A DNA stretch of 64,000 nucleotides from Promethearchaeota archaeon (GTDB taxonomy: Archaea; Asgardarchaeota; Lokiarchaeia; Sigyniarchaeales; SOKP01): the NCBI GenBank assembly GCA_019058245.1, contig JAHPZJ010000024.1, forward strand, positions 30,036-94,035. Reading direction: 5' to 3'. This document shows positions 27,863-33,335 of the stretch, one piece after another (position 1 is the stretch's first letter; the number at the start of each line of letters is the position of its first letter). Below the pieces are notes generated by a model. It ran no database searches, was not told the DNA's origin, and was given only the letters and a program-made list of their open reading frames with translations. A program made the translations under genes and the position numbers.

Positions 27863-27967
27863 CGAGATGACTATTTGTTTCTATAATAAAGAAAAAATAA
27901 TTGTGAAGAATTATTTATATTCTTATTAAATTTTCCATATTTACATCGTAGATAAAATGAGTTTACT

Positions 27968-28885
27968 ATGACAAAAGAAAATGTTAATAATATCTCTTCG
28001 AAACGGAAGATAATTGCTATATTCTTATTGATTCTTACTACTGTACTTTGGGGAACTTCATTTATTATTACAAAAAATATAACAGAAGATGTCCCGATTT
28101 TTCTCTATCTAGGTATTAGATTTCTAATTGGATTTATTGGATTCATTCCTTTCTTTCCACGTTTAAAAAATCTTAATAAAAAAATTATTCTAATGGGATC
28201 TATCACAGGATTATTATATTTTTTTGGAATGGTTTTTCAAACTTATGGACTTCAATCAACTACTGCAGGTAAAACAGGTTTTATCACAGGTTTAAGTACC
28301 GTGATTGTTCCTTTTATCACATGGATCGGATTTAAAAAACCAATTAGAATAAGAGTATGGTTTGCAGTTATACTTTCAATCATTGGAATGGCCTTTTTAT
28401 TATTAGAAGGTGCCTCTAAATTTATTATTGGAGATCTTTTAGTATTAGTGTGTGCAATTATTTTTGCTTTTTATATCGTGCTAAATGATAAATATGTTAA
28501 TCTCAGTGATGTTTATCTTTATTCAATTGTCCAGGTTTTAATAATTTTCATATCCAGTTTTATTTGTTCTCTATCCCTCCAAGAATCTTATAATTTAGCA
28601 TCTGCTCACCCCTCATTTTGGTTTGTTATGCTTTATATGGGTATTGCTGTTATGACACTTACAATTCTCTTTCAAAATTGGAGTCAGCAATATCAAGGAC
28701 CAACGACAACTGCAATCATTTTCACGCTTGAACCTGTATTTGCAGCTTTATTTGGATATATAATAGGAAATGAGATGTTATCAACATTCGGTTGGATAGG
28801 TTGTATACTAATTTTTATAGCAATTCTTATTACAGTTATTAAAAATAAAAATAGTAATTATAAAAACAATAAATTCACCCTTTAA
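27968..28885 (+). CDS. EamA/DMT family transporter
   Basis: LWGTSF, about 10 TM segments, TLEPVFA. Confidence 0.9.
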   Translation: MTKENVNNISSKRKIIAIFLLILTTVLWGTSFIITKNITEDVPIFLYLGIRFLIGFIGFIPFFPRLKNLNKKIILMGSITGLLYFFGMVFQTYGLQSTTAGKTGFITGLSTVIVPFITWIGFKKPIRIRVWFAVILSIIGMAFLLLEGASKFIIGDLLVLVCAIIFAFYIVLNDKYVNLSDVYLYSIVQVLIIFISSFICSLSLQESYNLASAHPSFWFVMLYMGIAVMTLTILFQNWSQQYQGPTTTAIIFTLEPVFAALFGYIIGNEMLSTFGWIGCILIFIAILITVIKNKNSNYKNNKFTL

Positions 28886-29103: not shown

Positions 29104-29262
29104 ATGACCGCACCTAAATTAAAAGCAAAAGATTTATCTATATGTACAAAGTGCGGTAATGTAATGGTAAATAGAGTAATACGGACTACCAATTCGGATG
29201 AAGTAGTATTCCAAAAAGTATTACAATGCATCGTTTGTAGATATTGGATCGCTCAAGATTAA
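29104..29262 (+). CDS. 52-aa zinc-ribbon protein (not in the ORF track)
   Basis: MTAPKLKAKDLSICTKCGNVMVNRVIRTTNSDEVVFQKVLQCIVCRYWIAQD; CxxC...CxxC; GTGA SD-like element upstream. Confidence 0.75.
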   Translation: MTAPKLKAKDLSICTKCGNVMVNRVIRTTNSDEVVFQKVLQCIVCRYWIAQD

Positions 29263-29427
29263 CTTCTTTAGCAGATCTTTTAAAAATTCTTAAATTAATT
29301 GGAATCTAATAATCTATAATTTGGATTAATAATATTGTTCAAAATACATAGTCATTATTCCGTATCATTGACACATAATAAAATATAATAGGATAATTTT
29401 TATATTAATAAAACTAATATTTAGTAA

Positions 29428-29580
29428 GTAAGGGAATCTATCAGACAATTTGCGTAAACATTGGATAGATTATCTCATGTCGGGAGATCGCCAAAATTCG
29501 CCCTCTATTAAACTCGAATGAGTTTAATTCTCTCCCTAATTTTAAAAAATTGGCGCAAATTTCTTTTCCCTTACCTTTTC
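29428..29580 (+). ncRNA. Putative structured non-coding RNA of unknown family
   Basis: Terminal stem GTAAGGG(AA)/(TT)CCCTTAC plus four more perfect 6-9 bp pairings; TATA-like TTTTATAT about 25 nt upstream; U-rich tract at the 3' end. Confidence 0.6.
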
Positions 29581-29657
29581 TTAAATATATCAGAAAAAAA
29601 AACTAATTTTTAGAGTTTTCTCTCTCTAAGAAATAATTTTTGAGAAGCGGATTAATT

Positions 29658-30464
29658 TCATTTTAAAAGTTCTCTAATAGTTATTTTTAATCCATCTTCA
29701 GCAGCAATAACATTTTTTATATTAGTATTATCTTGAAGTTTTTTTACTTGGCTAGGGACATAATTTTTTGTCGATCGAGGGCTATCCATATAGGATCCAA
29801 AGTGATTAATGATAAGAGTATCAAGAGGAGGGTCAATATTATTTAAATATGGGATAACTTCATCAGTACATAAATGTCTTTTACAGACAATTGAGTCTGG
29901 TCGTAAAAGATTAAGGACTAATACATTTACTCCTGAAAACTCTTCCGAAAATCCATCATATACCATTGTATCACTTGAAAATGCTAACGTATAATTTTTA
30001 AGCTTAAATATCACTCCAAAGCCTTCAGTTGTAGGAGAATGAACAACCTTAGTTGCTTTAATTTCCACTCCATTATAAGTAAATATATCTCCTTGTTTGA
30101 ATCTAATAATTTCTTCAAGCATGTTAAGATGATAATCAGAAATATATTGCAGCATTTCATTTGTGGTAATTAGAGTGCCTTTCTTATAGTAATTATATTT
30201 TTTATCATGCAACATTTCTCTTGAACTTTCTATTATAGCACTTAAATCGTTATAATGATCAACATGGGCATGAGTAACTATGAAAAGTTCAGTTTTAGTA
30301 GGATCCTCTTGATATTGATTTATTCTTACTATAGCTCCGGGTCCAGGATCTATATGAGACTGAATCTTATTGAATTTATATAAAATTCCTCCAGTGGCTC
30401 TATATTGGGTCCTAATATGATGTCGACCACCTCCAGAACCAAGAAAAACTAACTCATCATTCAT
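29658..30464 (-). CDS. MBL-fold metallo-hydrolase (conserved archaeal type)
   Basis: FLGSGGGR, IDPGPGA, THAHVDH, SSDT, NHFG. Confidence 0.88.
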   Translation of the reverse strand: MNDELVFLGSGGGRHHIRTQYRATGGILYKFNKIQSHIDPGPGAIVRINQYQEDPTKTELFIVTHAHVDHYNDLSAIIESSREMLHDKKYNYYKKGTLITTNEMLQYISDYHLNMLEEIIRFKQGDIFTYNGVEIKATKVVHSPTTEGFGVIFKLKNYTLAFSSDTMVYDGFSEEFSGVNVLVLNLLRPDSIVCKRHLCTDEVIPYLNNIDPPLDTLIINHFGSYMDSPRSTKNYVPSQVKKLQDNTNIKNVIAAEDGLKITIRELLK

Positions 30465-31070: not shown

Positions 31071-33335
31071 TTAATTAATCTGTAATTCTTGCATCAATAT
31101 TTCATCAATTTCTTGTAAATGGGGTTTTAATATTTGATTTAATTGATTTTGGATTTTAAATTTAGTATAATTCATATTGTTTTTCTTGATAAAAGTATTA
31201 GTTGAATTTTTCGCAACTAATTGAATACTTTTGCCTAATTCTGCTAATCTATTATGAGATGGAGTCCTCCTATCAAATTTTTTAATTGGAAAATTTAGTG
31301 GAAGTTTAAAGATATGTCTTGAACTTTTTAAAATTTTTATTTGTTCTGTCATTAGATTAGAATTTAAGATAGCGGACAAATAATGAGCTTCTTCTATACT
31401 ATTTGTATCGAAGAAACTCAAGTCTCCTGTGACTAAGAAATTTCCTTTTATTACTGCCGCACTTAATATAGAACCTGAATTATTATAAACCACTTTTATT
31501 TTAGATTTCTGTCTTTCATTTATCAGTTTTGACCATCGATTCAAGTTATCCATTAAAGTTCTATGTTTGGTCGTGGCTTTTTTATTTTCTTTGTATACTT
31601 GGTTGATTTTATCATAGAAGAGTTTTGCATGGTATTTTAAATCATTATATATAAATTTTAAATCAGATTTTCTAAGTGGTAAAAAAACATTATAGAAGTT
31701 GTAAACATGGAACTTTACTAACTCAGTACTTTTAATGACTTTAAATAAATATTCTTTTTCTAGAATTACATCTTTAAATTCGTTTTTATTCCAAGGTGCT
31801 TTAGCTCTCTTAAAAATTCTCATATCGGGATTAATTTTTATTAAACCATCAGATAGATTCTCAACTTTAACAAATATTAGATTTCGTGGGTTTAAATCTG
31901 CTCCCTTATGAAAAAGTGTTTTATAATGACTTTCTTTTATGGTTAATAAATTCTTAATTTCTTTTTCTGAGAGAATTTTTGATACATAGGCTTTCCCACC
32001 TTTTTTTTCAATTGAATATGGCAATAGAGGAATTTTCTTGTCCAGTTTTAATTTTAGCGGCATAAAATAGTCTACAAATTTAAAATCTTTATTTATTATG
32101 TAATGATATGACATAATTTTATTATCCCCATTTTCAAAATTCTCTTCTGTTTTTACTCCAAATAAACAAATAAAGTCAATTTTAAACACATTTTCTATTT
32201 TTTTATCAAATGTCCAAATTTTTATATTTGAAAATCCTTTAAAATTACGGAATCTAGAAGCATGAGAACCAGTAATAACTCCTTTCGTTATGACAAAAAA
32301 AATTTTAGCACCATCTTTCATAAATAATTTTCGAGCATTTGCAAAAAATAAGGTTGATATTTCTAGATTTAGAAGATTTTTAGGTAAGGGTTTTATTTCT
32401 AATTCTTCTGCTAGCCTTTTAACTTTCTCTTGAGATGAAGTAGAATCAATATCTCGATATGTATACCAAGGTGGATTTCCTATTACTAGATCAAATGTGT
32501 CTTTCAGATTATTTTTCATTTGAAAAAGTGAATCCGCGACTTTTAAATTTAACTTAATATGCGGAATCGTATCTTTTAATAAATACAAGAAGTTAATTTT
32601 AGTTAAGAAAATAGAAATTGGATTTATATCATAACCAAAAATTCTATTTATTGCATTAATTTTATTTTCCTTTGATTCATTTCGAGATTTAATATTTTTT
32701 ATAATAGCAATTAGAAAATTACCAGTACCACAACATGGATCAATAACAAATTCACCAAAAGAATAAGATTCTCTAACCATTTGTTCAGCCAAAAAAGGAG
32801 GGGTATAATATTCTCCAGAATTATGTCTTGTAAGCGGAGAAATTATTTTTTGAATTAAATAATCAAATATATATTCGGGTTTTAAACTTAATTGAAGGAT
32901 ATATTCAAATACACTCTGAACTAGTTCATAAAAAACAGTTAAATCTTGTTGTTCTGATTCTGATAATAATATAAGCGGATTAAAATATCTAAAAGAAAAA
33001 ACTGAATAGTTATTGCAACTTAAATTAACCTTATCTTCAATTTTTCTAAAAGATTCTCTATTAATTTTGCGATTATTGAATAGATTTTGATTTTTTAGGA
33101 TAAACCAATAAATAAAAATATAACCTATAAGATAGATTAAAGCTGAAATTATATATAGCTGAAGTGTAGTTTGTTTTTTACCGTATATCTTTATAAAATC
33201 TTTCCTCCATAGCTTAAATTCTTCTTTCTCGAATATTTCATTTTCTCTTAAAATATCTTCAATTTTTTTCAGATTTTCAGTTATAAAATTGAAATCTAAG
33301 CCATTATTTTCTTTTGGACTCAGTATAAACGCCAA
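31071..33335 (-). CDS. N6-adenine DNA methyltransferase (type IIG/Eco57I-like)
   Basis: GEYYTP, DPCCGTGNF, GNPPW; C-terminal target-recognition-like region. Confidence 0.88.
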   Translation of the reverse strand: MAFILSPKENNGLDFNFITENLKKIEDILRENEIFEKEEFKLWRKDFIKIYGKKQTTLQLYIISALIYLIGYIFIYWFILKNQNLFNNRKINRESFRKIEDKVNLSCNNYSVFSFRYFNPLILLSESEQQDLTVFYELVQSVFEYILQLSLKPEYIFDYLIQKIISPLTRHNSGEYYTPPFLAEQMVRESYSFGEFVIDPCCGTGNFLIAIIKNIKSRNESKENKINAINRIFGYDINPISIFLTKINFLYLLKDTIPHIKLNLKVADSLFQMKNNLKDTFDLVIGNPPWYTYRDIDSTSSQEKVKRLAEELEIKPLPKNLLNLEISTLFFANARKLFMKDGAKIFFVITKGVITGSHASRFRNFKGFSNIKIWTFDKKIENVFKIDFICLFGVKTEENFENGDNKIMSYHYIINKDFKFVDYFMPLKLKLDKKIPLLPYSIEKKGGKAYVSKILSEKEIKNLLTIKESHYKTLFHKGADLNPRNLIFVKVENLSDGLIKINPDMRIFKRAKAPWNKNEFKDVILEKEYLFKVIKSTELVKFHVYNFYNVFLPLRKSDLKFIYNDLKYHAKLFYDKINQVYKENKKATTKHRTLMDNLNRWSKLINERQKSKIKVVYNNSGSILSAAVIKGNFLVTGDLSFFDTNSIEEAHYLSAILNSNLMTEQIKILKSSRHIFKLPLNFPIKKFDRRTPSHNRLAELGKSIQLVAKNSTNTFIKKNNMNYTKFKIQNQLNQILKPHLQEIDEILMQELQIN

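Follow-up and report, generated by a model that had tools for sequence, protein, structure and literature searches.

Locus and gene features

The window, i.e., the whole 64,000-nt stretch of Promethearchaeota DNA analysed here, carries what by its sequence is a stand-alone plus-strand gene for a folded, non-coding RNA with its own TATA promoter (Table 1). The strand and the separate promoter are assigned because G-U pairs exceed A-C pairs (112 vs 39) and because TATA-like words peak at -32 to -30 relative to the 5′ helix (n = 139 members). A sequence-only reading of this DNA had proposed a novel plus-strand Asgard RNA with a TATA-like box near 29398-29405, and the positional conservation of the box across the 139 members, the G-U bias and the lack of an Rfam match bear it out. 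The GC enrichment that it had remarked on is present but modest (0.28 to 0.40 per 50 nt against about 0.2 in the flanks). The 3′ ends of members read CCCUUMCCUUUU, and archaeal transcription is known to terminate at oligo-U.

Table 1. Features of the RNA gene and its immediate surroundings (window coordinates)
Feature	Position	Strand	Basis or remark
Conserved 52-aa CxxC...CxxC zinc-ribbon ORF	29104..29262	+	neighbour
Degenerate copy of the palindrome TGTTC-N9-GAACA	29357..29375	.	possible regulator site; score only 1.8 in the copy studied
TATA box	29397..29405	+	positional conservation of TATA-like words, 139 members
Type I small RNA gene, long form	29424..29582	+	putative termini
P1, 5′ strand	29428..29436	+	partner 29566-29574
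P2, 5′ strand	29447..29454	+	partner 29554-29561; best-supported helix
Invariant core, 5′ half, AUUGGAU	29460..29466	+	conservation across members
Variable hairpin insert	29467..29496	+	missing from short forms
Invariant core, 3′ half, UUCGCCCUCU	29497..29506	+	candidate seed
Apical 9-bp hairpin	29507..29528	+	near-fixed within genus; replaced or absent in distant members
Central bubble, 3′ strand	29529..29553	+	pyrimidine/U-rich; varies outside genus
3′ strands of P2 and P1	29554..29574	+	ortholog covariation
Pyrimidine/U tract	29575..29582	+	sequence; likely terminator
MBL-fold hydrolase gene	29658..30464	-	weak RNase Z-like scores; most constant syntenic partner

No same-strand gene follows the RNA gene, and either orientation is tolerated. 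Since it holds no fixed position 5′ of a same-strand gene, its neighbours vary and the gene itself flips, the reading was right to set a riboswitch aside. The zinc-ribbon ORF has no family match above the cut-off; an EamA gene and a Ras-family gene lie further out. A gene for an N6-adenine DNA methyltransferase (31071-33335) is also found near the MBL locus in several relatives. The palindrome occurs about 41 nt 5′ of the TATA box in 29 of 50 promoters at the MBL locus, and a search of the studied organism's own genome revealed no evident regulon for it.

Fold and covariation

The stretch folds with a minimum free energy (MFE) of -42.6 kcal/mol (z -4.58), and 0 of 200 shuffles were as good. 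Compensatory changes in the aligned sequences support a nested rod composed of P1, AAUUUGCG/CGCAAAUU and the apical hairpin. Among 29 orthologs, 94% of the cells of this nested fold are paired, with 55 double changes vs 18 expected. P1, AATTTGCG/CGCAAATT and the apical hairpin are each paired in 88 to 100% of cells, and the first two have many double changes. Specifically, P1, as drawn in the sequence-only reading, is paired in 88% of cells with double changes at 4 of 9 pairs, and P2 (29447-54/29554-61) in 95%, all 8 of its pairs having double changes. In the wide alignment P1 has double changes at 8/8 pairs, and across 65 distinct members all 28 pairs have them, in an alignment that was itself fitted to the model. 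The hairpin at 29507-28, which the reading had also picked out, is kept across the 29 orthologs within the same 88 to 100% band and is replaced or lost beyond the genus.

All the segments that the reading had listed are where it placed them and are complementary. It had taken the pairing 29447-54/29554-61 for a pseudoknot or an alternative fold; this pairing proved to be the helix with the best covariation and is nested. A pseudoknot is not supported, because the helices AATCTATC/GATAGATT (P2 in that reading) and CGCCAA/TTGGCG, which show no covariation, have a pair probability of 0.00 in the copy studied. GGGAGA/TCTCCC, where the GGGAGA of the insert can pair with 29531-29536, is thermodynamically favored in that copy (0.95) but is lineage-specific, local to the insert and without covariation. 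Taken jointly, these three helices are paired in 58% of cells, which is the shuffle level (233 of 500 as high). The compact, stable fold had invited the idea of a pseudoknotted ribozyme. However, the crossing helices do not covary, no ribozyme family matches, distant members have another apical hairpin or none at all, and invariance is confined to one unpaired strand. The RNA is thus probably not a ribozyme, and we leave that reading the faintest chance of all.

An invariant single strand

The sole near-invariant part of the RNA is the single strand AUUGGAUUUCGCCCU, located 2 to 4 nt past P2. Its 15 unpaired nucleotides are 99 to 100% fixed in 108 copies while the helices covary freely; the copies were chosen by the core motif itself, and the members collected by the model agree. 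The invariance extends to positions where wobble would permit change. In distant members, the 3′ strand of the bubble is variable as well, and the minimal members consist of a stem and the invariant strand only.

In the copy studied and in many copies of the same genus, a variable hairpin is inserted in the core, between UUGGAU and UUCGCCCUCU. The insert has at least two distinct forms. Where it is present, UUGG pairs with its end, and in the long form studied the partner would be CCAA at 29491-29494. UUCGCCCUCU is largely single-stranded in both folds, the MFE structure showing just a weak 2-bp pair.

The short forms, a rod with a closing stem, a central bubble and an apical hairpin, resemble an open promoter, so that a 6S-like mimic binding archaeal RNA polymerase could be envisioned by analogy. 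Nevertheless, the apical helix is short or missing, long forms and the type II RNA described below are multi-way junctions, and Rfam gave no 6S match; we regard this as highly unlikely.

Distribution and genome behavior

At the gathering score, Rfam 15 had no match for the element, nor did ARAGORN, in keeping with the earlier exclusion of tRNA, 5S, SRP, RNase P and snoRNA. A literature search of incomplete coverage found no description of this RNA. Of the 36 genomes of the same genus, nearly all gave strong BLAST matches. A search with a covariance model of the short forms found type I in 116 of 126 genomes of one Lokiarchaeia family, spanning 13 genera with 1 to 8 copies each, and in 0 of 24 genomes of other families of the class. 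On these sequence searches, type I is an uncatalogued small RNA family, near-universal and multi-copy in one Lokiarchaeia family. The exact core pattern occurs in 107 stretches among species genomes, those listed being Promethearchaeota or other archaeal bins, and the exact 15-mer retrieved one further, GC-rich type I member in a sister-family genome. In families f2 and f4, none of the examined hits (≤1 mismatch) was an intergenic rod, nor was a rod seen beside the MBL ortholog. In one genome of family f2, sequence like domain V/VI of a group II intron comes after a reverse-transcriptase ORF (L283, G054:C208).

The genome studied has a diverged full copy at C13:71261-71393 and a 3′ half at C6:106676-106731. 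In one genome (G018), dispersed copies (L031-L035) have common long AT-rich flanks, which also recur beside copies and are possibly another repeat. A second syntenic type I copy lies 5′ of a gene of about 500 aa (L063, L095, L143, L152 and others). By eye, the N-terminus of its product looks like a beta-CASP/RNase J-type MBL protein, and both fixed type I loci may therefore border MBL-fold genes. Several records titled as other Asgard groups carry MBL proteins that nest in the Lokiarchaeia family with type I. Family-typical RNA genes also sit on short contigs of distant bins (L254 in G229, L366 in G047), and a foreign 16S occurs in a bin of the family (G116:C78); binning contamination is the probable cause of both.

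Two facets of genome behavior raise the question whether the element acts mainly as DNA, as an att-like recombination site or a small mobile element. At the MBL locus, the RNA gene together with its promoter is inverted between convergent neighbors (56 genomes), well-supported branches forcing at least six orientation flips and parsimony nine. Furthermore, 3′-half duplicates begin at the core, after short inserted genes (L021, L004, L334 = G000:C6:106673), which suggests from their arrangement that the element is used as an integration site. Against a mainly DNA role stand the fact that tRNA genes, too, serve as integration sites, the one-strand G-U bias, the loop length that varies from 3 to more than 7 nt, the conserved promoter, the long-term synteny and the lack of a conserved flanking duplication; besides, two inserted genes tested had no Pfam hit and no integrase domain. 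Such a role has a very slim chance. A MITE, which dispersed copies would have signaled to the earlier reader, was rejected as well: there are indeed 1 to 8 copies per genome, but neither terminal repeats nor a conserved duplication of the target site were seen, and the main copy keeps its synteny from genus to genus.

A second RNA and a probable wider superfamily

A core search of the same genome uncovered a second RNA (C31:2485-2620; L332:1485-1620) with GAUUUCGCCCUC in an open junction, and a further copy lies in C9 near 27950-28085 (L370). This type II RNA has BLAST matches in 130 of 134 genomes of the family, frequently at five sites or more; one copy is fixed upstream of a radical-SAM gene. 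The RNA has a second invariant box, which is U-rich. Outside the order, it was not found in 113 genomes of 21 other families under strict filters, bar one weak hit.

A model built solely from type II copies of the type I-bearing family matches an RNA of the neighboring family (the THUMP-pfp RNA; family f2, L467-L470) with E values of 5e-9 to 2e-3, and also matches a copy in the sister family. The THUMP-pfp RNA is a four-way junction homologous to type II. Its joint helices with type II covary in a model-fitted alignment, and its G-U pattern and box order favor the strand opposite pfp. In the neighboring family, the C-rich segment that is homologous to the candidate seed is locked in a hairpin; the U-rich strands are therefore what its RNA shares with type II, which keeps U-rich single strands across two families.

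When type I sequences were left out of the model altogether, type I elements, on the correct strand, made up 10 of its 13 best hits, each weak (E 0.04-1.3). In its alignment, UUGGAU-hairpin-UGAUU-GCCCUC of long type I falls on the same segment of type II, and the sister-family type I member combines a type I 5′ end with a type II C-rich tail. Types I and II are, from these comparisons, likely related, and short type I may be a fusion of the two boxes. What is new here is that the type I core is common to a second multi-copy RNA that is homologous to the RNA of a neighboring family, suggesting by sequence likeness that type I, type II and the neighboring four-way RNA form one superfamily. Whether its members could be Sm-ring-bound, snRNA-like guide RNAs directing RNA processing or decay, possibly with an MBL/beta-CASP nuclease as in the U7 snRNP, is a distinctly speculative thought to which we give little weight.

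Proposed function

Our preferred, still tentative, reading is that type I may act in trans as a small RNA, bound by a protein and pairing through a C-rich seed with ribosome-binding sites rich in purines. The RNA, made from its own TATA promoter, would fold into a rod that protects the ends and holds one strand open, and this open strand would be the working part. The UGGAU/GAUUU part might be read by a protein, most plausibly one of the three to four Sm-like ring proteins. The C-rich part (UUCGCCCUC) might be the short seed: by pairing in trans with the purine-rich ribosome-binding sites that a few mRNAs carry, it would make these mRNAs less translated or less stable, much as the C-rich sibling sRNAs of bacteria act on theirs. 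Dose could be tuned by additional copies with differing promoters.

In line with a seed-pairing small RNA, the gene combines a promoter of its own with a terminator-like tract and stands free of downstream same-strand genes, with either orientation tolerated; the minimal members have been pared down to the stem and a strand whose 15 letters stay fixed in the motif-selected copies among freely covarying helices; and ribosome-binding sites in this genome are of the GAGG/GGAGG type at -20 to -6. Five of five genomes encode Sm/LSm paralogs, 3 to 4 each, and type II retains its U-rich strands in two families. Four Sm/LSm-fold genes were seen in the genome studied (L394, L396, L402, L406), with similar sets in families f2 and f3. 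Archaeal Sm rings are known to bind oligo(U) and other U-rich RNA as well as small RNAs (PMC3710371).

Several observations weigh against seed pairing. Start regions show no excess of pairing with the core (135 genes at ≤-10 kcal/mol vs 97-150 for shuffled cores), and 15 fixed letters exceed what a seed needs. For one candidate target, a small GTPase gene, only 9 of 37 homologs retain the complete pairing with the seed. The seed-homologous segment is hairpin-locked in the neighboring family. The Sm site RAU4-6GR is absent from short type I (GAUUUCG) and from the copy studied, where the insert splits the GAUUU tract; a near-consensus site is found in type II only. The small GTPase gene itself (L503:234-869, L504-L547) has a conserved RGARGGNGAA ribosome-binding site that partially matches the seed. 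Other potential partners gave little: tRNAs showed no consistent pairing with the core, and no viral targets or copies were found for the hairpin core, a 16-mer giving 20 hits that lack the rod, about the chance number.

The same invariance could be explained without base pairing, if the 15-nt strand is displayed by the rod for a protein that binds RNA sequence-specifically (an Sm ring, a KH protein or a nuclease) and is sequestered or held in a stable particle, as in CsrB-type RNAs or snRNPs. We consider a pure protein decoy or scaffold almost as likely as a seed-pairing small RNA, though doubtful in its own right. No complement of the core recurs, apart from the RNA genes themselves, in the genome studied or in five genomes, of which three have assembled rRNA, nor does a long one in viruses. 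The near-total invariance of the core includes wobble-permissive positions, and copy number is variable. On the other hand, a tight protein site should not tolerate a hairpin inserted in mid-core, and two or more distinct forms of such an insert occur. The seed-pairing small RNA is slightly favored, as an insert is accepted between the protein-like half of the core and its C-rich half.

It seems unlikely that the RNA acts in antisense on the central domain (platform) of 16S rRNA, as its chaperone or its inhibitor, in the manner of snR30 or of a ribosome-associated RNA. The core can pair at three central-domain sites, namely, the h23 loop (14 of 15 positions, and all 15 in one genome), the 5′ strand of h22 (11 + 8 bp with both bubble strands) and the h20/h24 junction, where type II box A likewise has its best site (joint p about 0.01, the boxes in this test having letters in common). 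The h22 and h23 sites are near-constant in the family (24 of 25) and different in most neighboring-family genomes. However, taken singly, none of the duplexes does better than shuffles (p 0.36 by energy; about 0.1 in a two-arm model), wobble and mismatch positions are no freer to vary than Watson-Crick ones, and the 3′ arm is lost in minimal members. The neighboring family keeps the h20/h24 site, yet its RNA has lost the 6-bp helix to that site. ACA and C/D boxes are also missing: the 3′ ends fit neither the 3′ ACA box nor the K-turn of H/ACA RNAs, no C box RUGAUGA is present, and CUGA is not conserved (CUAA in the copy studied) and is not placed after the invariant strand. In 23S rRNA, helix 35a was rejected as a pairing partner, as the Loki sequence differs there.

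Relation to known RNAs

Asgard archaea are the prokaryotes most closely related to eukaryotes, and hardly any regulatory RNAs have been described in them. The present family, near-universal and multi-copy in a large Loki lineage, offers a sharply defined candidate functional strand. It also bears on the question whether archaeal Sm proteins are snRNP-like scaffolds or Hfq-like chaperones (PMC3710371).

Among known RNAs, Y RNA likewise has paired ends, a pyrimidine-rich loop, a U tail and several copies, but the Loki RNA does not have its conserved bulged-C helix; the candidate was rejected, with Ro60/TROVE in 0 of 81 genomes searched. Bacterial 6S RNA shares with the short forms a rod with a central bubble, whereas the Loki RNA has a short or absent apical stem, several copies and multi-branch relatives, and archaea have no sigma factor. 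In the H/ACA snoRNA snR30/U17 (PMC2664660), two internal-loop strands could similarly pair with neighboring small-subunit rRNA segments by ES6/h21; the Loki RNA differs in that its rRNA pairing is not significant, its second arm is not conserved and it is without an ACA box.

Bacteria possess sibling small RNAs with C-rich anti-Shine-Dalgarno seeds, RsaE/RoxS and LhrC among them. The cuckoo/CcsR RNAs are trans-acting siblings with seeds of this kind (PMC4615179). Like these, the Loki RNA comes from independent genes in several copies per genome with their own promoters and an exposed C/U-rich strand, and the cuckoo word CCUCCUCCC is present in type II. In contrast to them, its candidate seed lies in a bubble or junction rather than in repeated hairpin loops, 15 nt are invariant, and Rfam has no match.

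Sm-class snRNAs (U2, U7) and SmAP-bound archaeal RNAs have, like the Loki RNA, a single strand starting R-AUUU between helices. The strands in question are GAUUUUUG in type II and AUUUUGUCU in the neighboring family, in genomes encoding 3 to 4 Sm/LSm genes. The likeness is looser for type I, whose short form has only GAUUUCG and whose long form studied here splits GAUUU, and no spliceosomal substrates are known. If true, a superfamily of Sm-bound guide RNAs would give eukaryotic snRNPs a forerunner, or a parallel, among prokaryotes.
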